From IMG/VR virus record IMGVR_UViG_3300043571_000425: a stretch of DNA of 64,000 nt; one strand, written 5' to 3'. The notes below the pieces were generated by a model. That model saw only the letters and a list, made by a program, of their open reading frames with translations, had not been told where the DNA came from and searched no databases. Positions 24,661-50,700 of this stretch are shown piece after piece. Numbering within the stretch: the stretch's first letter is position 1; every line of letters starts with the position of its first letter. The position numbers were made by a program, and so were the translations under genes. Source of the DNA: a virus.

Positions 24661-25272
24661 ATGATTTTAAACGATGCACAGATAACGGAATTGGCAGCTA
24701 GTGGGATGATCAACCCATTTCAGCCTCAATTAATTAGAGAGGTTAGTATCTGCGGTCATGAACTAATGGAGAATCAGATCAGGAAAGTGATTAGTTATGG
24801 GCTGTCGTCTTACGGTTACGATATCCGATTAAGCCCTAAAGAATTTAAAGTTTTTAAGCATATTCCGGGTACAATTGTTAACCCTAAGAACTTTAATTCT
24901 GGTAATTTAGAGTCAGTAGAATTACAGCGTGATCAATGGGGTGATTTTTTCATAATCCCCGCTCATTCTTACGGGCTGGGTGTGGCAATTGAAAGGTTAG
25001 AAATGCCGTCAGATTTAACAGCTATTTGTGTGGGAAAATCAACTTATGCGAGGGCTGGTTTAATAGCTAATTTAACACCTGTAGAAAGTTCGTGGCGAGG
25101 GAATTTAACTATCGAGATATCCAATTCATCAAGTGCAGATTGTCGAGTGTATGCGAATGAAGGTATTTGTCAACTGCTATTTTTCAAAGGTGAACCATGC
25201 GCTGTTTCTTATGAAGATAGGCATGGTAAATATCAAGATCAACCTGAGCAAATTGTACTAGCAAAAGTTTAA
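24661..25272 (+). CDS. dcd: dCTP deaminase
   Basis: 203 aa; SYGLSSYGYDIRL and a conserved C-terminal HGKYQDQ-type region. Confidence 0.9.
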   Translation: MILNDAQITELAASGMINPFQPQLIREVSICGHELMENQIRKVISYGLSSYGYDIRLSPKEFKVFKHIPGTIVNPKNFNSGNLESVELQRDQWGDFFIIPAHSYGLGVAIERLEMPSDLTAICVGKSTYARAGLIANLTPVESSWRGNLTIEISNSSSADCRVYANEGICQLLFFKGEPCAVSYEDRHGKYQDQPEQIVLAKV

Positions 25273-25273
25273 T

Positions 25274-25498
25274 ATGAATCACGATCATCCATCTCATTAC
25301 AACCAAGGCAATATAGAGTGTATTGACGCGATCGCCTCCGCACTTTCTCCCCAAGAATTAGACGGTTTTGTTCGCGGTAATGTAATGAAATATATATGGC
25401 GATCGCCTCACAAAAATAAAGTTGAGGACTTGAAAAAAGCCCTATGGTATTTGAGTTGGTATATATCTAGGTTGGAGAAAGATGATGCAACTAATTAA
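25274..25498 (+). CDS. DUF3310-family phage protein
   Basis: HYNQGNIECIDAI...GFVRGNVMKYIWRSPHKNKVEDLKKALWYL. Confidence 0.7.
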   Translation: MNHDHPSHYNQGNIECIDAIASALSPQELDGFVRGNVMKYIWRSPHKNKVEDLKKALWYLSWYISRLEKDDATN

Positions 25499-26219
25499 AG
25501 ATTCTCGATTTCAAGTAGTTATTGATAAAGATGCGAGTTCCCCAAACCCCCAAGTCGCTATATGGAAAGGTCAGCATAGATGTGTTGCCGAAAAGTTTTT
25601 ACCCGACGATAAGACACCTACCCCAGAAAGCTGTGGAGAAGCCGTCATCAAATATCAGTTAGCAGGTGACAGGGGGCATTATTCAGTTCTCAGAAAAGCC
25701 TTTGTTAGTTTCCACTGTTTAGGATTTCCCCATAGTGTCGTGAGTCAAATCACAAGACATCAAGATTCAGCTTTTCTTGTTCAGTCAATGCGATATACAG
25801 GACAAAGAATTGTTGATTGTGCTGAGGGTGATATTCCTATTGAGGATGTTTTCTATTTCCGTCCTGTGGGGAGTTATTTTGACAGGAAAGGGAAAAAATA
25901 TGAATACACGGAAGAGAGAAGAGAGAAGCAAAAAAGAAGCAGATTGTTAGCAGCAAAAGAATATGCTAATGAAATGAGTCTGGGATATTCTGAGGAGCAT
26001 TCCAGAGATGATTTACCTTATGGATTCCGCCAAGATTTTGACCTTAGTGGAGACTTGCAAGCTGTTTGGCATTTGCTTGACCAGCGCACCAAAGCCGATT
26101 CTCAAATAGAAGTCAGAACACTTGCATGGATGATATTAGATTGTTTGAAAGAATTTACTCCTGAGCTTACCCAATGGTATTTAGAAAATCGTGCGGGTAA
26201 AGCTAGACTTGCTCCTTGA
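25482..26219 (+). CDS. thyX: flavin-dependent thymidylate synthase ThyX
   Basis: ThyX signature-like TRHQDSAFLVQSMRY; about 245 aa. Confidence 0.85.
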   Translation: MMQLIKDSRFQVVIDKDASSPNPQVAIWKGQHRCVAEKFLPDDKTPTPESCGEAVIKYQLAGDRGHYSVLRKAFVSFHCLGFPHSVVSQITRHQDSAFLVQSMRYTGQRIVDCAEGDIPIEDVFYFRPVGSYFDRKGKKYEYTEERREKQKRSRLLAAKEYANEMSLGYSEEHSRDDLPYGFRQDFDLSGDLQAVWHLLDQRTKADSQIEVRTLAWMILDCLKEFTPELTQWYLENRAGKARLAP

Positions 26220-26424
26220 TGTTTAACGCGATCGCTTTTCCATCTTGTAGGGATTGGTGCGCGATCGCATTTCTATTATACCGAATTATGTTATTATTAG
26301 TAAATACCCAAAAACGCGACTATTCAAAGTAGCCACGTTTTTAATTATCGGGTATGCGAATTATTTGTGATGTAGCAATATTTAAACAATGTTATTATTT
26401 ATGGAATAACTATTAATAAATAAC

Positions 26425-27342
26425 ATGAAAAATCAAATTATTCACGGTGATTGTTTTGAGGTTTTAAAGAGTATTTCTGATAAATCAATTGATGCTGTAA
26501 TCACAGATCCGCCTTATAAGTATTTAAAGCATAAACTAGAAACTAACTGGGATGAGAAACTATTTTTCATTGAGGTTTTACGCATCCTCAAAAAAGATAG
26601 TTTCTTAGTATTTTTCGGCAGGGGTGAATCTTGGTTTAGGTGGAATTATCTTTGTCAGGAATTAGGCTTTAATTTTAAAGAAGAGATTATATGGGACAAG
26701 GTTAGAACTTCTAATCCTATGTGTACGATGCCACGTTCTCATGAAAATATTGCTATTTATACAAATGGTAAAGGTACATTAAACGAAGCTAGGATAGATA
26801 AGCTGGAATATGATTCAATCGCAAACCCAAAAGCTATGGTTAATGATTTCAAGAGAATGCTGGCAACTATTAAAAATATTAATTCATGGGATGATTTTAT
26901 ATTATTTAAAAGCGGTACTCTAGGTAGTTCTGATGTTATTAGGCGCAGTGAGGTTACGATACAAGGCGGAATGAAAAAATGTGATAGAGGTTCAGGAACT
27001 TTTAAATCTCACGACAAAGGGCGGAGAATACCCTCTATTTTCAGATGTTTGAACGATTACTATAATTACGTACACCCCACACAAAAGCCATTATTACTTA
27101 TACAGAAATTAATAGAATTGACCACTGTTTCAGGTGCTATGATCTTAGATCCCTTTTGTGGTAGTGGTACAACTGCCGTAGCCTGTAAAGAACTTGGTAG
27201 AAATTATATTTGCATTGAGAAAGAATTAGAATATTATCAAATAGCTTGTCAACGCATAAACCAACCTATTGAACCTGAAAAAGAGGTTGTTCCGGTGGTT
27301 GAGGAGTTGCCGAAAGTTGAGCAATTATCACTATTTGGTTAA
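26425..27342 (+). CDS. DNA methyltransferase (beta-class N6A/N4C)
   Basis: DPPY motif (VITDPPYKY) and C-terminal HPTQKP...LDPFCGSGTTAVA. Confidence 0.9.
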   Translation: MKNQIIHGDCFEVLKSISDKSIDAVITDPPYKYLKHKLETNWDEKLFFIEVLRILKKDSFLVFFGRGESWFRWNYLCQELGFNFKEEIIWDKVRTSNPMCTMPRSHENIAIYTNGKGTLNEARIDKLEYDSIANPKAMVNDFKRMLATIKNINSWDDFILFKSGTLGSSDVIRRSEVTIQGGMKKCDRGSGTFKSHDKGRRIPSIFRCLNDYYNYVHPTQKPLLLIQKLIELTTVSGAMILDPFCGSGTTAVACKELGRNYICIEKELEYYQIACQRINQPIEPEKEVVPVVEELPKVEQLSLFG

Positions 27343-27558: not shown

Positions 27559-27587
27559 TTGATAATCTTATTAAAATAGCCTATAAT
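27559..27587 (+). promoter_or_regulatory. near-consensus sigma-70 promoter of the type IV-B-like operon
   Basis: TTGATA (27559-27564), 17 nt spacer, TATAAT (27582-27587). Confidence 0.6.
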
Positions 27588-27611
27588 ACCCATAACGGAC
27601 AAAACGCCCCA

Positions 27612-28571
27612 GTGGCCCTGAACCCACCAAGACGTTTTTTATCAGTCCGCTCAATCTGCTCATTTTTCACCCGCACAGATCAAGAAATATATATGAATAA
27701 TAACGTAAAACTCCCAGAATTGCAAGGTACAACCGTACTCACCCGCCAACAAATTTTAGACACCCGTGAAATGGCGTTTGGCGTGGCGGACAAGATGAGC
27801 GATCGCCAACTTCTAACCCACATGGGGATATTAAACTCATTGATATGGCGGGCTGCTACTGACTATCAGGCTATACGCAAGGATAACGACGGCGTGGAAA
27901 GGATTATTCCTGAGAACTGGAATAATTTATTAGCCTGTTCGGTTCAGGGTGAGGTACAAATAACAATCCCTATTGACTGGACTGACAAGTATTTAAAAAC
28001 CTATTGGACGGGCGCGTTCCATGACCAGAAAACCGTGAGAACCTACCGGAAACAGCAGTTATCATGGGGACTATTTTATTTTGATATTGAGAACCGTCCC
28101 AAGGGCGCTATGTGGGGAGCATTCACAGGCACTCCCAACCAAGGAATAGCTACACCGCCCGTATTAGAACGGGTTGACGTTGCCAGAATATTAATTTTTT
28201 ATCAGATGTTTGATCAAATTAGGCGCTCCAAAATTAACGAAAAACTTAAAAATTCTGAGGATGTAACCGCGTTTGACTGTATGCCGGATCATGGCGGTAT
28301 GGTGATGGTTGAACTCTACAACGCCTTATTTTTTGGTGTCTCAGAGTTTTTTGGGGGTTCTTATGGGAGTTCCGATATAGTCATCGGGAGCATAGAACCC
28401 TTACCAGCGACTAAGGTGATTGTATGGCAGTGGCAGAAGCCGAAGGGACTATTTAGGGCATTATGGGAACGGATGGTGATTAAGGCTGGATTTGTTGCTA
28501 AACAGGCGTTAAAGATTGTCACTCAGATGGTAGTCGAGCCGATGGGAGAATTAGCAGAAGTTCCGTTTTAA
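27612..28571 (+). CDS. hypothetical protein, first gene of the Cas7/Cas5/CysH operon
   Basis: 319 aa from the GTG at 27612 (alternative ATG at 27693); no motif recognised. Confidence 0.5.
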   Translation: MALNPPRRFLSVRSICSFFTRTDQEIYMNNNVKLPELQGTTVLTRQQILDTREMAFGVADKMSDRQLLTHMGILNSLIWRAATDYQAIRKDNDGVERIIPENWNNLLACSVQGEVQITIPIDWTDKYLKTYWTGAFHDQKTVRTYRKQQLSWGLFYFDIENRPKGAMWGAFTGTPNQGIATPPVLERVDVARILIFYQMFDQIRRSKINEKLKNSEDVTAFDCMPDHGGMVMVELYNALFFGVSEFFGGSYGSSDIVIGSIEPLPATKVIVWQWQKPKGLFRALWERMVIKAGFVAKQALKIVTQMVVEPMGELAEVPF

Positions 28572-28617
28572 ATGTCCAATTTTCTCCGATAATAATGTTA
28601 GTTAATTTAAAATTAAG

Positions 28618-29136
28618 ATGAACAATAATAATTATGGAATGTCTCAAACACGAGACAAATGTTATGGCGTAGCCGCTTGTCTTACCTATTGGGCTTTCAA
28701 GTGCCGTGACAGAAAACGTAGTCCAGCGATGGGTACTAAAACCTGGACTTACTTGGAATCAAGTATTAGAAATTCGGCTGAAATATCAACTAATTTAGAA
28801 GATTATTTGCAGCGACTTTGTGATAAACTTTGTTCACAATTACGCCCAATCGAGTTAACAAAAATAATTCAGCCAACACAACGGATACTAAGAGTAAATG
28901 AAGATGCGACGGAAATCAAGGAACTTCCTGTAGATCAAAACTTAGTATTCATGGGATGGTTGGACTTATTGAATGACATAGCTCCTCACGGATTTAGTGA
29001 ATGGGATGTCTTGGAACTACTGAGAACCAAAGCAGGGATTATTCAAGTAATTTGTAGATTACGGTTTGAGGAAGACCGCAGTTTAGGGTTAGATGAACCA
29101 GAAGAGTTTATAGAAGTTGAGGTGACAAATGTTTGA
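28618..29136 (+). CDS. small helical protein, candidate Cas11-like small subunit
   Basis: 172 aa; stop overlaps the Cas7-like start by 8 nt; the call rests only on size and position. Confidence 0.3.
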   Translation: MNNNNYGMSQTRDKCYGVAACLTYWAFKCRDRKRSPAMGTKTWTYLESSIRNSAEISTNLEDYLQRLCDKLCSQLRPIELTKIIQPTQRILRVNEDATEIKELPVDQNLVFMGWLDLLNDIAPHGFSEWDVLELLRTKAGIIQVICRLRFEEDRSLGLDEPEEFIEVEVTNV

Positions 29137-30259
29137 TAATTACGATGTTTTTGACCGTGAAAGATTGACATTGCATTGTGTAATTACGACACAAACGCCA
29201 CTTTCACATATTGGGGAAGTGTCGGGAAATGTGAGCAATTTAAAAACATTAAAATTACTGGATTTTGAAGGTAATCCCAGAAGTGTTTTCACCTATTCTG
29301 GAAATGCCTTGAGAAATGGTTTGTTACGGCGTGTAGGTGTAGCTGCGGCGTTAACTGAATTAGGATTACAGGTAAATCCTGATACACACCATACAATGTT
29401 TGCAGGTGGCAGGATTGATGCCGGTACAGCTTCAGATATGGAACTTGATAAAAAGATCCGGGTTCTAATGCCTTGGTTGTCGGTCTTAGGAACTGCTAAA
29501 CCTGCTAAAGTGTTTGGTTCTAAAGATGCCCAAATGGTGCAAGGTAGGATTAATGTAGGTTCTGCTTACTTGGCTTGTTATGAGTCAGCAGAGTACATCT
29601 ACAATCAGATACCAGCAATATTACCACCGGAAATACAGCCAGCCATTCAGAAGCTAATTGAGGCTAAAAATAGACTATCTTCAGACCCATTCACCCCTAC
29701 AAAGGCTGAGGATTTAGATAATTGGAATCAAGTAAAAAGTGATTATTTACCTTTAATTAGAAAGGTAATGAAAACTTGGACTGAGTATTTAACGGTTGAT
29801 CAAACTACCCGCAGAGATGCAACTTTAGATCCTAATTTGATTAAATTTCTGCCAACAGAAGTACAGGCGCAACTCAAGGGAGATGGTGCAGCTAAAGAGA
29901 AAAAATCAGATCAAATGATTGCTTCCGATAGATTAATTATGCCAGGAGCAAAACTATATTCAAGATGGGACTTGAACTGCACCAAGGTTGAGCAGGGTTG
30001 GATTTTTGATACATTACTCAAGTTTGCACAATTTCCATACTTGGGCGGTAAAGGTAATCGTGGCAATGGTCGAGTTAGCATGAATTTCTGGTTTAGTTCT
30101 GAATCAGAGCGCGGATTGTTGTGGAGTTCTGAAAGTGGAGTTGAGAGCGATAAATTCAATCTAGCACACGCTAAATATAGGGAATATATCAATCAGTATC
30201 AACAGTTTTTAAGTGAAGCGAAAACATCAACTGAATTAAGGAGTCTGTTAGGTGGATAA
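29129..30259 (+). CDS. RAMP protein, Cas7 (Csf2)-like
   Basis: 376 aa; TPLSHIGEVSG...YSGNALRNGLLRR at the N-terminus and glycine-rich loop YLGGKGNRGNGRVS near the C-terminus. Confidence 0.6.
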   Translation: MFDNYDVFDRERLTLHCVITTQTPLSHIGEVSGNVSNLKTLKLLDFEGNPRSVFTYSGNALRNGLLRRVGVAAALTELGLQVNPDTHHTMFAGGRIDAGTASDMELDKKIRVLMPWLSVLGTAKPAKVFGSKDAQMVQGRINVGSAYLACYESAEYIYNQIPAILPPEIQPAIQKLIEAKNRLSSDPFTPTKAEDLDNWNQVKSDYLPLIRKVMKTWTEYLTVDQTTRRDATLDPNLIKFLPTEVQAQLKGDGAAKEKKSDQMIASDRLIMPGAKLYSRWDLNCTKVEQGWIFDTLLKFAQFPYLGGKGNRGNGRVSMNFWFSSESERGLLWSSESGVESDKFNLAHAKYREYINQYQQFLSEAKTSTELRSLLGG

Positions 30260-30941
30260 TCTAAGAATTACAGCCCATTTAGCGACATCTTTAGCAGCTT
30301 ATGACAATTGGAGTCCATCGTTAGAAGGGATTTTAGTTTATAAACTCTTGGAAGAAAATAATCTATTTTCACCTAATCCCACGCCTAGTCAAGTAGCAGA
30401 TGTCCAGACTTTTGTTGAGCAGAATTTACTACTAAAACAGGGGATAATTAAATCAGAGAAATATTGGTGTGTGAGTTCACCTTATTATGTTTTGCAAGGT
30501 GAAGCTACAGACAAATATAGAAAGCGGTGGGATAATCACGACAATAATTTAGATTGGGGTAAGCGCAAACCTAAATTTCTAACAGGTGAAGGTGCGGAAA
30601 AGTCCTATGATTTACCTCTTTACACAAGGTCAATTAATTCTATTTCTTGGTTTGCTGTAGGCGATAAGTCAAAAATTAAGGATTTATTGCAAACTGTTAC
30701 TCACATTCAGAAAAAACGTAGTTACGGAAATGGTGAAGTTAGGGAATGGGAAATAGGGATAATTTACAATGATTACCATCTGTGGCGTGACAGTAAATTA
30801 ATGCGCCCAATTCCTGTTAGATTACTTGATCAGAAAATAGATAATCCTCAGATGATCTGGGGGTGGAGAAGCCCCGCGTGGTTAGCTGCAAATAAGGAGT
30901 TATGCTATATGCCAAAGGATAATGTGATTTATGCTAAGTAA
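30252..30941 (+). CDS. RAMP protein, Cas5 (Csf3)-like
   Basis: 229 aa; RITAHLATSL..SPSLEGILVY at the N-terminus, KKRSYGNGEVREWEI G-loop; GTG start overlaps the previous stop. Confidence 0.5.
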   Translation: MDNLRITAHLATSLAAYDNWSPSLEGILVYKLLEENNLFSPNPTPSQVADVQTFVEQNLLLKQGIIKSEKYWCVSSPYYVLQGEATDKYRKRWDNHDNNLDWGKRKPKFLTGEGAEKSYDLPLYTRSINSISWFAVGDKSKIKDLLQTVTHIQKKRSYGNGEVREWEIGIIYNDYHLWRDSKLMRPIPVRLLDQKIDNPQMIWGWRSPAWLAANKELCYMPKDNVIYAK

Positions 30942-31677
30942 CGGATCTGGCGTTCAATATCCCTGGTTAAAAAAGAAAATAATCAGGGCAAAAGACTCAA
31001 TTAAAACCTGGTTAGAGCAATGCGATTATCAGGTTTACGCCAGCATTTCGGGCGGTAAAGATAGCTTGGTGATGTCGCATTTAATTAGGCAAATTTATCC
31101 TGATTGTCCTTTGGTATGGGTAAATCAGGGTTCGCTTGCCGAATGGGACGATTGCATTGAACTATTAGGGTTTTTGAAAACTCAAGGCTGGAATATTATT
31201 GAACTTTGTCCAGTTCGTGATCTGTGGCATTTATATCTTGATTATGGCGTTCCTCTTGAAGGAACAATGGACACAAAAGCCGATAAAATAATCAACCAAA
31301 AATTGATTTATGACCCTCTTAATGAGTACCAAGAACTGAATCAAATTAAGGGTTATGCGTGGGGAATACGTAAGCAAGAAAGCAGAAACCGCGCATTTTA
31401 TCTCAACAAATATGGTGAAGTGCATACGCTCAAAAACGGGTTGATTTGTTGCTCACCCGTGGCATTTTGGACTACTCAAAATATCTGGGAATATATTGAT
31501 ATGCACTCGTTAAAATACCCTGCTATTTATGATGTTGATAGAATGACAGTTAGGAATGGATGCCCAATCGGTACAACAGGTGCTAACTGGGGAAGATTAG
31601 CAGAGTTAAGAAAGCATTACCCAGATATTTATAATCAATTTGCTACTAAATTTCCACAGGTATCAACCTATGTCTAA
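30931..31677 (+). CDS. PAPS reductase family (CysH-like) PP-loop enzyme
   Basis: YASISGGKDSLVMSHL PP-loop; about 248 aa; family-typical layout. Confidence 0.85.
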   Translation: MLSNGSGVQYPWLKKKIIRAKDSIKTWLEQCDYQVYASISGGKDSLVMSHLIRQIYPDCPLVWVNQGSLAEWDDCIELLGFLKTQGWNIIELCPVRDLWHLYLDYGVPLEGTMDTKADKIINQKLIYDPLNEYQELNQIKGYAWGIRKQESRNRAFYLNKYGEVHTLKNGLICCSPVAFWTTQNIWEYIDMHSLKYPAIYDVDRMTVRNGCPIGTTGANWGRLAELRKHYPDIYNQFATKFPQVSTYV

Positions 31678-32422
31678 TTGCTACCTTTGCGCTAAACCAG
31701 GCAACAACCCATTGGAATTATCCAATACATTTACCATGCACTCATCAGCTAAATGCCCGGATTCTAAAGTGCTTTGTAATCGCTGTCACTCTACAATTTC
31801 CGGTAATCAAAAGCAGCTTTGGTACTGGAATGAAGGTAAAAATAAATGGTCAAAGCTGTGGGGACGTTCTTTGTCCAGGGTTTATCAGGGTGATAAGCTA
31901 ATTGCGCCTGTCGTTGAAGGTGAATATACAGAAGGCAAGGATACTTTTTCAATAGTTAAAAACTTGCTGACTAGGGTGGGAATTAGGCAATACTTGTTAA
32001 ATCCACCTGAACCGCCTTTTACTATAGCCATAGCAGAATCGGGGCAAAAACATATTATCCCTTGGGCGTTAGAAGGTCAAAACAGAGATTTATTCCCTGT
32101 GCAATTTGAACTCGACACTATTTATATTGACAATAGATTTAGAGAATATTTGGAAATTTACGAACAATTGATGGGGTTGGGCTTTAGTAAGTCTGAAATT
32201 GATTCTGGAGATTATCGAAGCGATCGCCTAATGAAAGTTTTTGATCAATATGGGGAACTTGAGGAACGGATAGCGCGTATTAGGGGAACGAGATTAATGC
32301 AATTAATTAGCTATGTTGCCCAAGTGCAAGACGCGCCGCCAATTACGGAAGTAGTGCAAATTCCCGTAATGCCTGTTTCACCAAAAACACTTGAGAAGCC
32401 ACTGCAATTATCTTTGTTTTAG
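31670..32422 (+). CDS. zinc-finger protein, Csf1 (Cas8-like)-like
   Basis: ATG at 31670 overlaps the cysH-like stop; MSNCYLCAKPG...AKCPDSKVLCNRCHS (CxxC...C..CxxC). Confidence 0.45.
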   Translation: MSNCYLCAKPGNNPLELSNTFTMHSSAKCPDSKVLCNRCHSTISGNQKQLWYWNEGKNKWSKLWGRSLSRVYQGDKLIAPVVEGEYTEGKDTFSIVKNLLTRVGIRQYLLNPPEPPFTIAIAESGQKHIIPWALEGQNRDLFPVQFELDTIYIDNRFREYLEIYEQLMGLGFSKSEIDSGDYRSDRLMKVFDQYGELEERIARIRGTRLMQLISYVAQVQDAPPITEVVQIPVMPVSPKTLEKPLQLSLF

Positions 32423-32440: not shown

Positions 32441-32884
32441 ATGTCCAAACTATTCATCCCCAATTTCATCATTTACGCCACGCTCCCAACCATAGAAGCG
32501 ACTTGTGGAGACTATGAAGTTGACCCGGAAACCGGAAACCCGATTGCAGTCAATACCACCCTGGAGATTAAGGCATGGATGCAAGGCTATGATCAGCTAC
32601 GGCAGGGGCGAACCACGGCTAAACCGGAACATCCAAGCGTAGATTTTAACACCGTTTATTTGTCAGGTTATGCCGTCACACCTAAAGCCATACCCGCCCG
32701 GACATTGTTGGCGCGTGAAAAATATAACGCCAAATACATAGAACCAATTACAGGAACGGAACAGCAGGGAACTTTCGTACTAGCACCTCAAGTAAACGAA
32801 CAACGCCCTAGAGTTGCTAAGGCGTTGGCAAAAAGATTGGGGATGGAACTGCAAGGAACTTTTGAATTTGGTTATGGAAGTTGA
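32441..32884 (+). CDS. hypothetical protein
   Basis: 147 aa, 18 nt after the previous stop. Confidence 0.45.
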   Translation: MSKLFIPNFIIYATLPTIEATCGDYEVDPETGNPIAVNTTLEIKAWMQGYDQLRQGRTTAKPEHPSVDFNTVYLSGYAVTPKAIPARTLLAREKYNAKYIEPITGTEQQGTFVLAPQVNEQRPRVAKALAKRLGMELQGTFEFGYGS

Positions 32885-33120: not shown

Positions 33121-33153
33121 CCCCTGTAATTTGCGTTACAGGGGTTTTGTTTT
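33121..33153 (+). terminator. hairpin + T-tract (terminator-like on +; intercistronic on the minus-strand operon)
   Basis: CCCCTGTAA tttgcg TTACAGGGG followed by TTTTGTTTT. Confidence 0.45.
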
Positions 33154-41299: not shown

Positions 41300-41524
41300 A
41301 GTAGAGTAACCCGTCCTTTCCGGGTGAAAAACTAACCATTGAAACCACCGGAATACTGCAATATTCCTGCGTGGTATGGTTACGATAATTTTATCATGTT
41401 TTCAATAGTCTTATTAATTCTTCAATAACTTAGGATACAATATTATCCAGTCGCGTGATGGTGTTGGTAGCACCGATTCACCACTGGCTGTAGGTCTTGT
41501 ACACCCACATTGATATTATTCCCA

Positions 41525-43393
41525 ATGAAAACTATTAAAATCAAGGTCAAACTTCTTGCTGAACAGGCGCAATCATGCGATCGCTACCTAGAAGAATTGA
41601 CATGGCTATGGAATCAGGTATTGGCTAATCAATTGCATAACCATTGCATCACCTGGTACAACTGGGCTGGTAAGTTGAGCGCAGATTTAGCTAAGGCGAC
41701 GGAAAAGTTAGAGAAGCTAAAACCGGAACAACAGCAGCTTGTTAGGAACTACTACCGCAGCAAAGACAAGCCAAAACTCAACAAAAAAGAACAGGAATTA
41801 GTTGCCAAATTTGATATATTTTCCCGGTGGTTGCCGTTTGACTTAGAAAATATTATTCCCGTACCTTTGCGAGTTGGCAACAGTGGCTACGAGGGCTTAT
41901 CGTGCCAGATTGCTACAGGCGGAAGTTACTGGAAACGGGACGATAATTTTAATATTCCAATCAAAACCAAAAAGGGGATTATTCACGTCAAAGGGTCTAA
42001 ATTAGTTAAGGGTGATTACCCCTGGAAACGAATACAAATAATGCCACATCAATATAAAACTTTCCCCAGTGGTAAGTTTGAGGGGAGGGAATTAATAGAT
42101 TTAATGAAGTTTGATAATTTGAACGGGTTAAACGGGTTAAGAGCGATGCAAAATCTACCTGATTTATCCGTTTCCTCGCACTACGTCGGAGGCTTGTTAG
42201 AGTTTTTCAAACAGTCATGGTTAGCATTTTTAGACCCCAAAAGGATAAACAGCAGGAAGCCAAAATTCAAAAAAGATGCTGATAAGATTAGCACTTTATT
42301 TAATAAGCAATGTCCACCAAATAAGATAGACATAAAGAATAATTCAGTTGAAATTACTGGATTTGGCAATTTAATCGTTACTGATAGAAGTTGGGGGGAA
42401 AGACTGAACCTAGATAGCAGTCTTCCTCGGACGTATATGCTAACCAAAAAAGCATCTGGCTACTATATCAATATTGTCCTTGCTCACCCATTGCAAGAAG
42501 AAAAAGCGGTTTTAACAAAGAAATTACCCAAGGTTAAAAAGGAGCTTGGAGAAGACAGCCAAGAGTACGAAGATATTAAGTCTAAAATCAAGTTTATTGA
42601 ACAGCAAATCAAGGATTCGTTAATCGTAGTGGGAAAGAATTTAAGTGTAGGGATTGACCCTGGAGTACAGGCTATTGTGGCGACAGATCACGGGGCGTTA
42701 TTCCTCCCAAATCTAAGCAGGGAAAGAGTGTCAATCCATATAGAGGAACTACAATCAAGGCTTGATAACCTTGAATTAATTAATGATAAAAAGTGGAAAG
42801 ATTCAGGAAGCAAAGGTGCTAGACCTAAGACAAAAAACGAGATTAAGATACAAGATAAAATTACCAGATTACATGAACGTGGGGCTAATTCTTCTAATGC
42901 CTTTAATCATAAAATGTCAACTAGATTAAGCAGGACTTACGAGCATATAGCATGGGAGGATACCCAGTTAACCAATCTCCTAAAACAAACAGAAGCTAAA
43001 GCATTGCCTGAAGGGGTGGGATATGCTCACAACGGCGCGTCTGCTAAACGGGGTTTAAATTGGATTATGAGACAAAGATGCTTGGGTGATTTAAAAGCTA
43101 AAACTAAGCAAAAAGTTGAGAACAGAGGCGGTAGTTTTCATGAACCACCTGCTAACTACAGTTCTCAACTATGCCATTGTTGTCATCAGAAAGGTGAGCG
43201 ATTATCACAGTATGAGTTTGTCTGCAAAAACTCTGAATGTGAGTTATTTGAACAGGTGCAACAAGCTGACACCAATGCGGCTAGGAATCACAAACATAAT
43301 AGTAGTTTTGAACTAGGAGAAGTCAAATATCACAACACTAGATTGGTTTACCAAAAACCCAAGAGATTTAAAAAGAAACGCTTGACAAAGTAG
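41525..43393 (+). CDS. TnpB-like RuvC nuclease = candidate type V (Cas12-like, V-U-type) CRISPR effector
   Basis: 622 aa from the ATG (TTG alternative at 41510). RuvC-I VGIDPGV, RuvC-II IAWEDTQL, zinc finger CHCCHQ..VCKNSEC, RuvC-III QADTNAARN. A CRISPR array lies 350 bp downstream on the same strand. Confidence 0.8.
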   Translation: MKTIKIKVKLLAEQAQSCDRYLEELTWLWNQVLANQLHNHCITWYNWAGKLSADLAKATEKLEKLKPEQQQLVRNYYRSKDKPKLNKKEQELVAKFDIFSRWLPFDLENIIPVPLRVGNSGYEGLSCQIATGGSYWKRDDNFNIPIKTKKGIIHVKGSKLVKGDYPWKRIQIMPHQYKTFPSGKFEGRELIDLMKFDNLNGLNGLRAMQNLPDLSVSSHYVGGLLEFFKQSWLAFLDPKRINSRKPKFKKDADKISTLFNKQCPPNKIDIKNNSVEITGFGNLIVTDRSWGERLNLDSSLPRTYMLTKKASGYYINIVLAHPLQEEKAVLTKKLPKVKKELGEDSQEYEDIKSKIKFIEQQIKDSLIVVGKNLSVGIDPGVQAIVATDHGALFLPNLSRERVSIHIEELQSRLDNLELINDKKWKDSGSKGARPKTKNEIKIQDKITRLHERGANSSNAFNHKMSTRLSRTYEHIAWEDTQLTNLLKQTEAKALPEGVGYAHNGASAKRGLNWIMRQRCLGDLKAKTKQKVENRGGSFHEPPANYSSQLCHCCHQKGERLSQYEFVCKNSECELFEQVQQADTNAARNHKHNSSFELGEVKYHNTRLVYQKPKRFKKKRLTK

Positions 43394-43528: not shown

Positions 43529-43560
43529 GCAATCCTCAGAAGGGATTAATCATTTTGCAA
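43529..43560 (+). ncRNA. anti-repeat (candidate tracrRNA core)
   Basis: GCAATCCTCAGAAGGGATTAATCATTTTGCAA. Its reverse complement aligns to repeat positions 2-33 with about 28 Watson-Crick and 2 G:U pairs. A weaker second copy lies at 43618-43642. Confidence 0.55.
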
Positions 43561-43742: not shown

Positions 43743-44700
43743 CTTGCAGGATGACTAATCCCTTCTGAGGGATTGAAACAAGTACAATTGATGGAAATAA
43801 AATATTAAGCATAGACTTGCAGGATGACTAATCCCTTCTGAGGGATTGAAACAATTTTGAGCTTGACATAATCATCGTTATGTCACTTGCAGGATGACTA
43901 ATCCCTTCTGAGGGATTGAAACGTCATGCTTATCAGATGAACTTCACCCAAATACGCTTGCAGGATGACTAATCCCTTCTGAGGGATTGAAACAACTTGC
44001 TCCTGCACTGCCTTGCAGGATGACTAATCCCCTTGCAGGATGACTAATCCCTTCTGAGGGATTGAAACAGGCGTGAGTTTGGCGTGACGTGGCGTAAATC
44101 TCTTGCAGGATGACTAATCCCTTCTGAGGGATTGAAACCTTAGATGTTAAGACTGTCAGAAAATATCAAGGTAGACTTGCAGGATGACTAATCCCTTCTG
44201 AGGGATTGAAACGTCGGTTCTTCATTAATTTGCTTGCAGGATGACTAATCCCTTCTGAGGGATTGAAACTACCGTTAAAGTGTTCATGAATCTTTTGGGG
44301 ATGACTTGCAGGATGACTAATCCCTTCTGAGGGATTGAAACAGTGTGTGCAGTCAAATACTTAGATATTCCATCTGGATTGCAACTTGCAGGATGACTAA
44401 TCCCTTCTGAGGGATTGAAACAACTTATGACCCTAACATTGCTTGCAGGATGACTAATCCCTTCTGAGGGATTGAAACCGACTGATAGCTGATTTTTCCA
44501 AATAAACGGAGTCCTTGCAGGATGACTAATCCCTTCTGAGGGATTGAAACTGTACTCTTTTGGCAATTGTGGTTAACATCTTCCTACGCTCCTTGCAGGA
44601 TGACTAATCCCTTCTGAGGGATTGAAACTTCTAATATCTGCGAGCGATATTTATTAAAACCATCTTGCAGGATGACTAATCCCTTCTGAGGGATTGAAAC
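43743..44700 (+). CRISPR. CRISPR array, 14 identical 37-nt repeats + 1 truncated repeat, 13 spacers
   Basis: Repeat CTTGCAGGATGACTAATCCCTTCTGAGGGATTGAAAC (7-bp hairpin AATCCCT/AGGGATT, 3' tag ATTGAAAC). Spacers are 33-43 nt, plus three short ones of 18, 20 and 20 nt. Confidence 0.97.
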
Positions 44701-44744
44701 GAGGCGTGGCAACTATAAGGAAAATCCCTTACCAGTTGCCAGTT

Positions 44745-47700
44745 ATGAATTTAGGCGAACTAATTGTTGACCTGTCACTCGACTATGCAGAATTTAACCA
44801 GTCATTAGAACAGGCGAAAAAAGCCGCATCTAGCGCCGCCGCAAGTATTGAGAAATCATTCCAGAAATTATCCCTATCCGTTGACATTGACGACAAGTCA
44901 CTAACGGATTTAAACCAGCACATCAACATATCCGTACAACACTTAAAGCAAGCTAATACCTTCTTTAGAAACAACCCGATTACAACTTACGTCAATGATG
45001 ACAGCCTCACGGACTTAAACGAACACCTCAACGTGAAAGTCCGTCATTTAAAAGAGGTTAACCATTTTTACGCCCAAAATCCTATCACCGTCCGCACCAA
45101 TACCGGACAACTCGATGAGCTAGAGGAACGACTAGACAGACTTGGTAACAGAAAGGTGACGATGGAAGTTGACACCATAGTTCTGAACCAATACCAGGAC
45201 AAAACCGCAGAAGTTGTGGAACAGGCTATTTCTAATGCCATCCGTCAAATGCAAGTTCCCCAATCTAGCGGACAATCGGCGCAACAATCACCACAATCTC
45301 AACAAAATAGAGTCCAGCGGGTTCAACTGGGATTAGACCCTTTGAGGTCAATTGGCGAGGGCGTTTTTGAAAATGTCGGGAAACAGTTGAGCAAAGGCGT
45401 TGGATCGTCAATGCAGGACTCATTGGGCGTGGATATGAAGTCTTTTACTCAAATAGCCTCTAACTCAGTTCTACGTTATTTTGGCGTTGGTAAAAAAGCG
45501 CAAAAAGACCCCAAAAACAATAAATCAAAAATCAAATCTATTGTTGAGGATGCAATTAAAGATTACTCTACGGCTGTTGACAAAGGGTCAGGATCTATCA
45601 GAGGTGAACTTGACGACGTTGATTTAAGTTCAGTTGATGCGATCGCAAGAAACAGTTTATTGAGATATTTTGGAGTAGGCAAAAAAGCACAATCAGACCC
45701 CAAAAATAACCAAGCTAAGATTAAATCTATAATTGAAGATGCTGTTAAACAATATTCAGGAACTGATGTAAAAAAAGAAAATTCCGGCGTTATATCAAAT
45801 ACATTCTCTGAAATAAATAAAGCATTTTCAGAAACAGTTAATAAAGGTGTTCAGGGAATAGCAGAACGAGCTAAACTCGCAACTATCAAGGAAGTTAGAA
45901 GGGCATCAACTAACGTTTTAGCCAACTCATCAAGTGGTGTTAGAGACAGCGTAAATGGTCTTTTTGACGCTGCCGAAAGTGGTAAAAAAGGGTCTGTCAG
46001 TCAATATATCGGGCGTGGTTTAGCATCACAATCCAGGAAGGCTGTGGAAGGAACTTTTAGCAATTTATTCCCTACAGTTGCACCGATAGTTAAAGAATTT
46101 TTAGCCACTGGGAACAAACCACCTGTAGAAAAACAAGCTCCTAAACAACGCCCAGCAGACGGATTATTAGAAGCGGCCAATCAACTCAAGGAAGCCGCGA
46201 AGGCAATCAGTGAATCAGCGATTAAAGTACAATCTGTAGCACCTGTTATTCATGAACAAATAGCAGATCCTTGGGGTAGTGCTGACTTAACGCCAGTTCA
46301 AATTCCACTGAAACCAGCGAAACAGAAAACCAAGAAACAAGAGCCTGAACCCGAATTAGTTTTACTAGAACTTCCACAACAAACACAACAGCATTTTAAG
46401 ACATTAAATGCAGAAGTAGGGAAGAATACCGCTAAATCTCTGGAGTTTTTAAAAGCAACTACACAGGAAAATATTAAGCAACAAACTACACAATCAATCG
46501 CTAATATTAAGGCTGCTTTAGCTGCTATTAATCAATATTTCAAAACAGAATACAAGCAGGTAAAAGACGCTGTAGATAATGCAAAATCTACAGGGCATAT
46601 TGACGATATTAACGCTGCTAGAAGTGCAGCTAAAAATTATCAGCGTAGATTATCTGGTGCGGTTAAAGAGATAGATAGAATTGTTAAATCTGGCGAGGAT
46701 GCTGGTTTTAGTAAAGAATTTGGATCTGAATTAAGTCAAGTACACGCAACTGGCAAAGGTCAACTTGTAGCTAGTGACAAGCGTGTTGGACAGCAATTAG
46801 GTGGATTAAACTTACTCGAAGCTAATCAGTTTAAGAAAGACGTAAAAACCTACACAGAACTAGCTAAAAAAGCGGGCATTGAGATTGACGCAGGATTAAT
46901 CAAAGGATTAGATATTGGTTCAGCGGGTGTAACGGCTGAAACACGCGACCTGCTAAACGGATTGATCGCCACTGTTAAGAAAACAATGGGTATTCAGTCG
47001 CCATCATGGGTAATGATGGGAATTGGTGCGATGATTGCGGCTGGTTTAGGACTAGGTATTAAAAACGGTGTCGTTGACGTTTCTAGTGCCGTTGGGCTGT
47101 TAACGGATGCTATTGGGGATGGATTAAAAGATATTCAGTCTATTCCATCAGAAGGAATTGAGGCATATAATCAGGCGTTAGAAAATGCAGTAAGCGACAA
47201 ATCGGAACTGACCAAGAAAGTATTTGAGGAAGCTAAGGGAGCAAGCAAAGCGACATTACCTGGAATGGTATTAGGTACAACCATGATGGGTGTTGCTAAC
47301 GCGGGTTTAGTCCCTAAATCAATTGAAACACCGTTAAGGCATTTAGGAGCATTTTATCAAGGGAAAGCAGGGGTTCATCAGATGAATCCGCAATTGGCTA
47401 GAGAGGCTGAAATTGCAACTATCTTTAATATGATGCAATTGGCTGAAAAAGGCGACGGGTATTTTCCTGATAGTGGTTTTGTGGGCATGGTTAAACACAA
47501 AACTTTGCCTACTTTAGCTCATACATTGGGAGGTTTTAACTACACACAAAACAAAGACAAGGGGTTGCAAATTAACGATGTTTACGACTGGCATCAAGAT
47601 ACTAATACAGACAAAAATACACCATTCAAACTACCTAAAAATTTAGGTAGTAAAATATATAAATTCCTGGAGTCAAAGAAATGGCTACAAGATTTATTAG

Positions 47701-50700
47701 GAGTTGAAGAGAATTTATTTGGTAATACCAAAGCATTTACTAAATACAATAAAAAAACAGGGCGTGAATTATTCTCAGTCCTTAACACTCAATCTGGGAA
47801 TGATTTTCAATTAGGGCATTCAGTCCATTCTGAATTAATTGGTGGTAATCCCTACATTCAAACGCACCGATTGGATGGGAAAGGGCTGGATGATTTAACA
47901 GACTTAGCAACAAACCCTTATATTGCATCTAAAGGCAATTTTGGGCAATTCTTGAATCACCCTAAAATTCAAGAATACGTTTTAGGCGGTAGTCAACAAA
48001 ATCAACAACCGTCTGGATTATTAGGACAATTATTACCAGCATTAAAGAAAGATTTAGGCAGCAATCCCATACTCACAAATCTATTCAGTAGTGCTACAAA
48101 AGCAATTGGTAAAGGTGGCAGTTTCAAAGATATTGGTACTAATCTAATAACGTCATTTGGGCAGGGTATTTTATCATCAGATGATGGTGTTTTTGGAATA
48201 CTTGGAACTTTTGCTAAGTCTGCAATTGGTTTAGTTAAAAAGATTTTTGGTATTGCATCACCATCTAAGATATTTCATTGGATAGGATTGATGCTTGGGC
48301 TAGGATTGGAAGAAGGTGCAATGTCTTCTTTGTCTAAGGCAAATCAAAAAATAACTGGTTCAGTAAAAGCTACGACAAATAACGCAAAAACAATAATTCA
48401 GGGGGATCATTCACTTGGATTAATTGGGAACATACCCCTAGGCGTTAAAAAAGAAGTTTCAATAGGCAATCAAGTACAGGGGGCTGACGGCACTGTGTCT
48501 GGTAGTGCTGGGTATGTAAAAAACGTTCCTTACACAATAAATGACTTACGGAATCACGTAGGAGATATACTATCTGCTAACAAAAATTACGGGACTTCGG
48601 TAGTACCAGGACTGAGTGGTATCTTGGAAAATAATTTATTTCCGACTTTTAGCAAGGCGTTTAAAACAATAAAGTCTTCTCCTGTTTATACTCAAAAAAA
48701 TCAACAAAAAAATCCTCAAGCTGTATATGCTGCAACACCAAATATTCACTCACAGCCTACGATACTAAACCACGCTCAACATGCATTTAACACATTATCA
48801 AGTATTCACTCACAGCCCACTAGGTTAAACGCACCTCAGCAATCACAAGCTACAGTTTTACAGCCTACCAATACAATTTTACAGCCCTTACAGTCAAATA
48901 CTCTAAGACAGGCTAATACAGTTTTACAGCCTACCAATACAATTTTACAGCCCTTACAGTCAAATACTCTAAGACAGGCTAATACAGTTTTACAGCCTAA
49001 TTGGATGTTCCACAATCCAACAAGTCCCCAAACCGTATCTGCTGCTATCCCCCTACAGCAAATTACGCAGCTAGGGACTGAATTAGGGAATAACGTAATT
49101 TCCGCAGTCGGGAACAGCATTAAACAGACAAGGGGGTTAAGCTATCCAACATTAGGGCAATATATGAGAAATGCCGTAGTTGCTGCGGGTTCTGCTATGT
49201 CAGGGTCACTTATGGGGATGTTAGGAGGGCATTTAAAAACCTTCTTCCCCATGATCATGAAAGTTGCTTTACCAATGGCAGGTGTAGCGGCGTTGAAACT
49301 TGGTGACGGCATTACAGGCAACTTACTGAAAAATGGAATATTCAAGCAAGGCGGATTTTTAACCGAATTACTCAGTGCTTTTAGTGGCATTAAACTGGGT
49401 TCTATGGGTGGTGCAGGTATTAAATCTGCGATTACCGGGATTACACAGTTTTTGGGCGTATTTCCGATGCTGTCACCATTGGCAAGAATTGGATCAATGG
49501 CTGCTAATGCGGGTGTAGTGGCTCACGATGTTTTTAGTGGTGGCAACGGGGGACGGAAATCAGTTAATACAGTTTTAGAAAACAAGACTACTGAAAACCT
49601 GAAAGAAGCGGGTTTAAACTCTACAGGAAATTCCACCGCAGATTTAGTAGAGAATTTGGCAGAAACTACCGTCGGTGCTTTGTTTAGGATGATTGGGTTC
49701 GATGGTGTAAAAGCATCCGCCGTACAAGCATTAATCAAGGGTAAAGTTAAGCAACATTCTGAACAAATCGCTAACGCCGTTGGTGGTGTTGGTAACGGTC
49801 AAATATCCGCATTGATAGATGGATACGTAAAAGGCGATTCTACCCAATTGGCGGGTACAGCGGAATCCATGCTCAAAAACATGGGTATCACCGGATTGGA
49901 CTCTAAGCAAATTAAGCTTGCTGCTAATGCAATTACGGCTACCCTATCAGGTCTTCATGCCAAATTCGGACAGGAAGGATTTGGACTTGGTGAGTCAATT
50001 AATAAGGGATTTAGAAAATCTTTAGCAAATCTAGCTAACGCCAAAGATGATCTAGAATACAACCTCAAAAAGGCTGTAGGAAAAGCCAGCGCAGGTGACG
50101 TAATCGGCAACATCTTCAAACGGATGTCACGCGGTTTCGTTGTTGACAAGGGGATGTTTGATGAAATGTGGAATCAGGTGGGAGCATCCTTTAAAAAAGG
50201 TGCTTTCAAAGGCATGAGTGGCAACGAACAAGAGGGAATGTTCGGGAATATGATGGGATTCATGGCATCCGCTACAGCTATGTTTGCGCCGATTACCGCA
50301 ATGGCTGCATCTCTAGCTCCTTTATTCCTCCCTCTAATGCCTATAATCGCGGGTATTGGCGGTGCTATCAGGATGGTAATGCCCCAATTGAGCAAGCTGT
50401 TTGAGGGTATGCAACGGGTAGAAACCTTGCAACGCCGATTCACCTTTTTGGGTGGCTCTAAAGCGGGCGGTATCGCCGAATTGAACTACGCCAAGGGTGT
50501 CGCCAATCAAATGAATGTTCCGTCAGAAGTTGCGGCCAACTCATATTCTCAGTTGGCAATTGCGTCCAAAGGAACAAAGATGGAGGGGCAAGGCGTAAAA
50601 GACTTGTTTGAAGGTATCACCGCTTCCCTAAGTGCTTTAGGCATCAGCGGTCAAGATGCCTCCCTGGTATTTATGGCATACACTCAGATCATGGCAAAAG

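Follow-up and report, generated by a model that had tools for sequence, protein, structure and literature searches.

Subtype IV-B is the one widespread subtype of class 1 CRISPR-Cas systems without a known function, and reviews of 2024 and 2025 still call it uncharacterized (PMC11656645, PMC12669027). It has been described mainly on plasmids of Actinobacteria, with fewer reports from Archaea, Firmicutes and Proteobacteria (PMC7038947). IV-B loci are defined by Csf1, Cas11, Csf2 and Csf3 together with a cysH-like gene, without a helicase, Cas6, adaptation genes or an array (PMC8175902, PMC7038947); a Cas6 gene in such a locus is a rare exception (PMC7038947). Type IV loci in general are known from plasmids, integrative elements, prophages and some lytic phages (PMC10848311, PMC11656645). 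Here we analyze a viral DNA stretch of 64,000 nucleotides (nt), IMG/VR record IMGVR_UViG_3300043571_000425, which we call the window. Positions 28618-32422 of this window very probably constitute a complete IV-B effector module with the gene order cas11-csf2-csf3-cysH-like-csf1, carried by a siphovirus related to Aphanizomenon phage vB_AphaS-CL131 (hereafter CL131).

The module consists of five genes. Type IV calls were made with the CRISPRCasTyper-derived hidden Markov models (HMMs) in PADLOC, which decided the assignment, and Pfam, NCBIfam and PHROGs were used as further libraries (lengths in amino acids, aa):

28618-29136, + strand: cas11, type IV small subunit, 172 aa (PADLOC typeIV_Cas11, E 2e-6, residues 10-151)
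29129-30259, + strand: csf2, type IV Cas7 backbone subunit, 376 aa (PADLOC Csf2_0_IV, E 1.1e-36, residues 13-333)
30252-30941, + strand: csf3, type IV Cas5, 229 aa (PADLOC Csf3_0_IV, E 1.5e-40, full length)
30931-31677, + strand: cysH-like gene with a PP-loop ATP-pyrophosphatase fold, 248 aa, between csf3 and csf1 (PF01507, E 4.5e-15)
31670-32422, + strand: csf1, type IV large subunit, 250 aa (PADLOC Csf1_0_IV, E 6e-23, residues 2-217)

All five open reading frames (ORFs) are intact, and each overlaps the next (cas11/csf2, csf2/csf3, csf3/cysH-like, cysH-like/csf1), by 8, 8, 11 and 8 nt in gene order; the five genes are translationally coupled. Coordinates and overlaps agree to the nucleotide with those of an earlier note on this DNA, and every peptide motif quoted there is present in the window translations. 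The core claim of that note, a phage-borne IV-B effector module, is borne out by the profile searches that it had proposed: type IV HMMs match four adjacent genes (Cas11, Csf2, Csf3 and Csf1) and PF01507 matches the fifth.

The Csf2 protein carries a helical insertion at about residues 150-260, and the residues of its glycine loop (G306, G307, K308, R311, G312, N313, G314) are invariant in relatives. A profile built from these relatives has Csf2 of the type IV-B complex 7JHY as its top match in the PDB (E 1.3e-4), and NCBIfam cas7_csf2 matches the protein with an E-value of 8.7e-8. We also compared an AlphaFold2 (AF2) model of Csf2, with a predicted local distance difference test (pLDDT) score of 75, by Foldseek. 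The best match is the IV-A Csf2 8rc2_D (2.4e-10) and the first 31 matches are all type IV-A Csf2; they are followed by type III Csm3 and 7JHY Csf2 at about 1e-5, the latter (7jhy_a) at rank 36 with 2.5e-5. The Csf3 profile matches type IV-A Csf3 (7xfz_B) over its full length with an E-value of 1.3e-12, and a protein identical to the window Csf3 carries the precomputed Pfam assignment PF27782:Csf3. For Csf1, NCBIfam cas8u_csf1 gives an E-value of 1.5e-8, and the N-terminal zinc-finger cysteines C4, C7, C36 and C39 are invariant in 15 relatives. Cas11 was assigned on the basis of its HMM matches (two further typeIV_Cas11 models in PADLOC at 2.9e-4 and 6.3e-3), one hhalign match to the Cas11-position gene of the Rhodovastum plasmid IV-B locus (E 3.9e-5, probability 70%), and its position and translational coupling to csf2. 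Its AF2 model is a helical bundle (pLDDT 82).

The cysH-like product matches phrog_424 (E 3.5e-27). Its PP-loop SGGKDS is invariant in relatives (S40, G42, K43, D44, S45), while its only C-terminal cysteine (RNGCPIG) is a proline in those relatives. The Cas-associated CysH (CasCysH) of IV-B systems has been described as keeping the nucleotide-binding loop and lacking the catalytic cysteine (PMC8175902), and the pattern found here matches that description. Since the protein keeps the ATP-binding PP-loop and lacks the redox cysteine, it is most likely an ATP-dependent accessory enzyme, as predicted from these motifs, and not a sulfonucleotide reductase.

Several observations weigh against the assignment of these genes to type IV-B. 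General libraries recognize the genes weakly (Pfam RAMP family, 0.0055). The NCBIfam csf2, csf3 and csf1 models match three adjacent genes with E-values of 1e-8 to 1e-10, but the scores of 31.8-39.1 bits lie far under the curated cut-offs of 130-140, which indicates that the clade of this module is divergent. With Foldseek, the Cas11 model matches nothing in the PDB, not even the Cas11 of 7JHY; the structural comparison suggested in the earlier note thus gave type IV matches for Csf2 and none for Cas11. The Cas11 sequence profile likewise has no Cas11 match in the PDB, nor does it match the Cas11-position gene of Rhodococcus pROB01. The Csf1 profile barely detects Csf1 in the PDB (E 0.53). Finally, the cysH-like protein is placed among the Cas-associated CysH proteins by motifs and operon position and not by a phylogeny.

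The operon contains no nuclease, DinG or RecD helicase, Cas6, adaptation gene or array, and no HD or Cas10 protein, of the kind that IV-C has in place of Csf1, was matched in it by Pfam or NCBIfam. It is flanked by a DNA methyltransferase gene, a homologue of CL131 gp018, and a 147-aa ORF. This gene set and these absences fit the published definition of subtype IV-B, to which we therefore assign the module. The module's genes stand in a permuted version of the canonical order csf1-cas11-csf2-csf3-cysH; the Rhodovastum plasmid and the distant viral loci L036-L038 have the canonical order itself (handles beginning with L denote related loci). The module represents a branch of a known subtype that is new, divergent and rich in viruses; the system is not of a new kind.

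The IV-B system of the Mycobacterium sp. JS623 megaplasmids (PDB 7JHY) has the same set of Csf1, Cas11, Csf2, Csf3 and a cysH-like gene, and equally has no Cas6, helicase, nuclease, adaptation genes or adjacent array. It differs in being carried by a plasmid instead of a phage, and its Csf2 has 300 aa versus 376 aa in the window, where the protein contains the large helical insertion. In the window csf1 comes last and cysH lies within the operon, a permuted order; the sequences are divergent enough to miss the NCBIfam cut-offs, and the fold match of Cas11 was not recovered. The IV-B system of the Bathyarchaeia viruses ‘Fuxiviridae’ (PMC10848311) is also virus-borne, includes a CysH-like gene and has been given the same hypothesis of counter-defence or competition between elements; however, its host is archaeal and it includes a two-repeat mini-array, whereas the module of the window, in a virus of cyanobacteria, has none and shares its genome with an unrelated type V-U2 system. 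The closest solved structures of Csf2 and Csf3 come from type IV-A (Pseudomonas oleovorans IV-A1 and Klebsiella pneumoniae IV-A3; 8RC3, 8RC2, 7XFZ), whose interference is also nuclease-free. In contrast to the module, type IV-A has DinG, Cas6/Csf5 and its own array but no Cas11 or CysH, and no IV-A-specific gene is found in the window operon. The closest cellular relative is located on plasmid pGMOR1 of Gloeobacter morelensis (NZ_CP063846, 77.4-82.9 kb), with a Csf2 that is 51% identical. Its order, cas11-csf2-(cas6)-csf3-PAPS (3'-phosphoadenosine-5'-phosphosulfate) reductase-(cupin)-csf1, matches that of the window; it differs in its plasmid carrier, a Cas6 of the type I-MYXAN Cmx6 family, a cupin gene and a second type of CysH-like protein. 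The csf genes of pGMOR1 are annotated as hypothetical.

The locus opens a large clade that is not annotated in public databases. Relatives of Csf2 form at least 301 clusters in the protein collection, all unnamed or named ‘hypothetical protein’ and none with a precomputed Pfam domain. Csf2 is also encoded on 33 IMG/VR contigs, in which the module genes stay together although their order varies and extra genes are sometimes inserted. A cyanophage-type clade (Csf2 at least 39% identical) accounts for 28 of the 33 loci and has all five module genes. The five distant loci (Csf2 26-27% identical) have the core genes, with Cas11 undetectable by tblastn, and two of them miss one gene at a contig end. 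The main carriers of the clade are viruses of bloom-forming cyanobacteria. Among cellular genomes (species representatives), close relatives were found only on small contigs of metagenome-assembled genomes of Dolichospermum and Spirulinaceae, along with distant loci in Bacillota; the Gloeobacter plasmid is the one close relative among plasmids. No Csf2 homologue was found in isolated phages (tblastn against INPHARED) or by Foldseek in BFVD. We found no report of IV-B in cyanophages in the literature searched. Phage-borne IV-B has already been reported, and the window adds a new member; the picture of what IV-B is remains unchanged by it.

All five module genes are under strong purifying selection. 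The ratio of nonsynonymous to synonymous substitution rates (dN/dS) between the window and one relative is 0.03-0.09 at a synonymous divergence (dS) of 0.6-1.0, with values of 0.04 for cas11 and 0.06 for the cysH-like gene. One stop codon was seen in the relatives, in csf1 of L018.

Two other accounts of what the cluster is were considered. It could be a DNA modification system of the Dnd, Ssp or BREX type, built around a PAPS-reductase-like enzyme and the neighbouring methyltransferase, and not a CRISPR system at all. The cysH-like protein does have weak partial PADLOC matches to BrxP (5.1e-8), SspD (3e-4) and DndC (0.014), a gene for an N6/N4 DNA methyltransferase is located 270 nt upstream, and about 10 of the 33 viral loci have a methyltransferase near the module. 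Yet the methyltransferase next to the module is not conserved, nor is the cysteine required for sulfur chemistry; DndA, DndB, DndD, DndE, SspB, SspC and BREX partners were not detected with Pfam, NCBIfam or PADLOC, and the four genes that flank the cysH-like gene encode type IV Cas proteins with E-values from 1e-6 to 1e-40. The earlier note had named a lack of Cas7 and Cas5 similarity, or a match to a Dnd-like pathway, as what would speak against its own reading; the similarity was found and no rival pathway matches. We consider a modification system extremely improbable, effectively refuted by the type IV HMM, Csf3 profile and Csf2 Foldseek matches, and have rejected it. Hardly more credible is a decaying remnant, acquired from a host or plasmid and functionless in the phage. 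The operon indeed has no array, nuclease or adaptation genes, and a function for the subtype has not been established, but five intact, coupled ORFs with such low dN/dS values at this dS speak against a remnant, and the unit survives rearrangements across the 33 viral loci down to a Csf2 identity of 26-27% (39% within the cyanophage-type clade). A complete and maintained IV-B module thus remains our reading.

Related modules show what varies within this unit. A Cas6 gene (PF09559, E 5e-47 and 6.4e-35) lies within the module in six viral relatives and in pGMOR1:

L022:11674-12432: Cas6 inside a IV-B module (PF09559)
L020:2300-3181 (also L023-L026): Cas6 inside a IV-B module (PF09559)
L045:7207-7998: Cas6 inside a IV-B module (PF09559)

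Up to 10 kb of flanking sequence showed no CRISPR array near the Cas6-bearing modules examined (L020, L022, L024, L026, L045) or near that of pGMOR1. A Cas6 inside the module without a flanking array suggests processing of repeat RNAs that originate in other arrays, with those of the host as the most plausible source.

The CysH-like proteins fall into two types that are 25-30% identical to each other, one of about 248 aa with SGGKDS and an insertion of about 30 aa, as in the window, and one of about 234 aa with SWGKDS. Swaps between the two types are seen among modules that have 72-90% identity in their Csf proteins. Behind the second type lies either a cupin gene (PF07883) or a 230-aa ORF without a family match. 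Its loci, compared with window positions 30931-31677, are:

L003:11859-12933: second-type CysH locus
L013:11806-13207: second-type CysH locus
L045:8692-9779: second-type CysH locus

A tandem arrangement of three csf3 paralogues with both CysH-like types is seen in one viral module (L019:3387-7962). In L007, L008, L009 and L032 (9693-10000), which are among the closest relatives, 308 nt are inserted between cas11 and csf2; the insertion encodes an ORF of about 100 aa that ends with EVEVTNV like Cas11, and the overlap with csf2 is restored. Modules with or without Cas6, with either of two interchangeable CysH-like cassettes, and with or without a linked type V-U2 array are natural variants for comparison, and provide handles on two questions: whether IV-B uses CRISPR RNAs (crRNAs), and what the CysH-like enzyme does.

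By analogy with the solved IV-B and IV-A complexes, Csf2 would polymerize on a small RNA as the backbone of the complex. Cas11 would form a minor filament, as judged from 7JHY and IV-A structures, giving an RNA-bound Csf2/Cas11 double filament, and Csf3 and Csf1, again by analogy with the solved complexes, would cap the 5' end. The complex may be loaded in trans with crRNA-like guides, most plausibly class 1 crRNAs of the host. Once loaded it would not cut; it would either bind complementary nucleic acid or keep guides away from host effectors, and the purpose would be phage counter-defence or competition between mobile elements. Such trans-loaded, nuclease-free and guide-dependent action is the mechanism that we prefer, tentatively and with somewhat less than even confidence. 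Several facts count against this proposal: the only purified IV-B complex carried heterogeneous RNA and not crRNA (PMC7937560), no Cas6 was detected anywhere in the 64-kb window, and no target was found for the spacers of the phage's own array.

This array belongs to a second CRISPR-Cas locus in the window, separate from the module:

41510-43393, + strand: Cas12u2 (type V-U2, TnpB-like) nuclease, 627 aa (PADLOC Cas12u2, E 3.8e-57)
43743-44700, + strand: CRISPR array: 14 repeats of 37 nt, all identical (CTTGCAGGATGACTAATCCCTTCTGAGGGATTGAAAC), with 13 spacers of 20-43 nt

The earlier note had pointed to a nuclease and an array 11 kb away. Both are real, at distances of 9 kb (nuclease) and 11 kb (array) downstream of the module. 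The nuclease matches the Pfam families Cas12f1-like_TNB and OrfB_IS605, contains the RuvC D/E/D motifs, and is 29% identical to the TnpB-like effector of CL131, with GIDPG, WED and DTNAARN aligned. The array starts 350 nt downstream of the nuclease gene, and its repeat has an 8-bp hairpin near the 3' end. An anti-repeat at 43530-43560 is complementary to the repeat in 28 of 32 positions; its local score of 46 compares with at most 28 for the rest of the window. It is a putative partner of the repeat resembling a trans-activating crRNA (tracrRNA); a search around the arrays of L013, L014, L060 and CL131 gave no counterpart. The pair is homologous to the system of CL131, which has repeats of 36-37 nt and variable spacer lengths (PMC6293099) and whose effector was typed V-U2 by its authors (PMC6293099). 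The Cas12u2-array pair is an independent type V-U2 system.

How the IV-B complex acts can be explained in three further ways. It could be a sponge or anti-CRISPR decoy that soaks up host crRNAs or other small RNAs irrespective of sequence. The idea was raised by earlier authors, and IV-B anticorrelates with other CRISPR systems in hosts (PMC7038947); a sponge agrees with assembly of the Mycobacterium complex on heterogeneous RNA (PMC7937560), and a lytic phage facing host I-D and III-B systems would gain from it (PMC6293099). However, a sponge does not need Csf3, Csf1 or an ATP-dependent enzyme, which are nevertheless constrained (dN/dS 0.06-0.09), five genes for an anti-CRISPR were judged unlikely by earlier authors (PMC7038947), and the Cas6 genes of related modules argue for defined, repeat-derived RNAs. 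Because the handle-end subunits Csf3 and Csf1 are constrained and relatives encode Cas6, we favor defined guide RNAs and regard a non-specific sponge as unlikely. The guides could instead come from the phage's own array at 43743-44700, module and array then being one functional system, a link that the earlier note had raised. IV-B, Cas12u2 and array do occur together in all close relatives, with Cas12u2 beginning less than 1 kb past csf1 in L014 and L015. The array repeat ends with ATTGAAAC after its 3' hairpin, an end that we take to resemble class 1 handles. A IV-B locus of an Actinomyces plasmid has been drawn beside a type V effector with a mini-array (PMC12669027). Against this, the array lies directly downstream of Cas12u2, and the anti-repeat between the two points to type V-style processing. 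The repeats, all of which begin with CTTGC or a close variant, differ among relatives with diverged Cas12u2 (window, L013, L014, L060 and CL131), CL131 has Cas12u2 and an array but no IV-B module, and viral loci with a Csf2 identity of 69% or less show neither Cas12u2 nor an array within up to 10 kb. We found no evidence in support of the link, consider a shared system rather improbable, and conclude that the IV-B module and the Cas12u2-array pair are two systems sharing a variable region of this phage lineage.

About equally doubtful is the more far-reaching possibility that the IV-B complex is an RNA-guided platform that delivers an ATP-dependent adenylylating or otherwise modifying activity of the CysH-like protein to complementary nucleic acid of the host or of a rival virus. 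The guides would again be supplied in trans, either as host class 1 guides (processed by the module's Cas6 where it is encoded) or from the phage's own V-U2 array. If this were true, the module would mediate nuclease-free, guide-directed modification or silencing in viral counter-defence, and the exchange of the two CysH cassettes, unrelated to each other and one including a cupin, would be a switch of effector chemistry. We retain trans-loading with host guides as the preferred proposal.

Spacer lengths in the window array (20-43 nt) vary to an unusual degree. The 13 spacers of the window and the 90 unique spacers of related arrays have no match outside arrays in the window and related loci, and ten of the window spacers, searched against INPHARED phages, have none either. 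Phages that are 97-99% identical in Csf2 and Cas12u2 have no window spacer in common, and 90 of 121 spacers are unique across the related arrays (L006, L039-L043 and L058-L062 compared with the window). This points to spacer turnover despite the lack of an adaptation gene in the parts of the window that were scanned. The last 20 nt of ‘spacer’ 4 (43994-44031) copy the first half of the repeat (CTTGCAGGATGACTAATCCC) and directly precede a full repeat; the array thus includes one truncated unit. L015 (19515-20480) and L017 (13630-14595) each have a second Cas12u2/TnpB-like gene, distant in sequence (about 29% identical) and on the opposite strand; it lies about 300 nt or less from the end of csf1 in L017 and about 6 kb downstream, just beyond the array, in L015.

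Around the module, the following features delimit a possible transcription unit:

27559-27587, + strand: sigma-70-like promoter candidate (TTGATA, 17 nt, TATAAT), in a 270-nt gap after the DNA methyltransferase gene
27690-28571, + strand: first gene of the transcription unit, about 292 aa, homologue of CL131 gp018 (listed ORF start GTG 27612)
32441-32884, + strand: 147-aa ORF, 18 nt past csf1, seventh co-directional ORF
33121-33144, + strand: terminator-like hairpin with a 10-bp stem (5 GC pairs) and a T run, tail TTTTGTTTTA

The promoter-like sequence reported in the earlier note is present, matches the consensus in 11 of 12 positions and has the top + strand score between 26 and 34 kb. This region contains 29 promoter-like sites versus 26 +/- 4.9 in shuffled sequences, no excess, so that 27559-27587 is a consensus match only and a candidate promoter. 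The terminator-like sites are not more numerous than in shuffles either, and the hairpin possibly marks the end of the transcription unit. The six co-directional genes counted previously are all there, but the count left out the 147-aa ORF after csf1. This ORF has no match in Pfam, NCBIfam, PADLOC or PHROGs, and its homologues are confined to the closest relatives among the module-bearing viral loci (L006-L008 and L032), which places it outside the conserved module.

The first gene matches phrog_34986 (E 2.7e-127) and is 57% identical to CL131 gp018. With the alignment beginning at position 27693 and a public gene call of 292 aa, the gene most likely starts at ATG 27690 and encodes about 292 aa. 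The gene of 319 aa noted previously thus exists but is probably shorter. It had been suggested as a new component of the module. We rejected it as such, since CL131 carries gp018 without any IV-B genes (unrelated small genes follow it there) and 28 of the 33 viral loci with the module lack the gene; among module loci and CL131, homologues were seen solely in the closest relatives and in CL131. The first gene is a passenger and not a IV-B component.

The window encodes a DnaB helicase, portal protein, large terminase, sigma factor, tape measure protein, dCTP deaminase and ThyX, and is a tailed phage. CL131 is its only nucleotide-level relative among isolated phages, and the relationship covers portal, terminase and tape measure. 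The carrier is a siphovirus related to CL131, with Nostocales such as Dolichospermum or Aphanizomenon as likely hosts. Directly upstream of the operon, a block at 24661-27342 encodes a dCTP deaminase-like protein, a DUF3310 protein, ThyX and a CcrM-like N6/N4 DNA methyltransferase. An Rfam scan gave tRNA only. One of the module-bearing contigs, 80 kb long, has genes for EAL and PAS-GGDEF proteins (cyclic-di-GMP turnover) a few kb upstream (L004:2630-5878), which is unusual for a phage, and this contig may be a plasmid or prophage region. The tape measure gene of the window (44694-57101) encodes 4135 aa with TMP_3 and Peptidase_M23 domains; its listed TTG start lies inside the last CRISPR repeat, and the gene holds a perfect 66-nt tandem repeat at 48851-48999.

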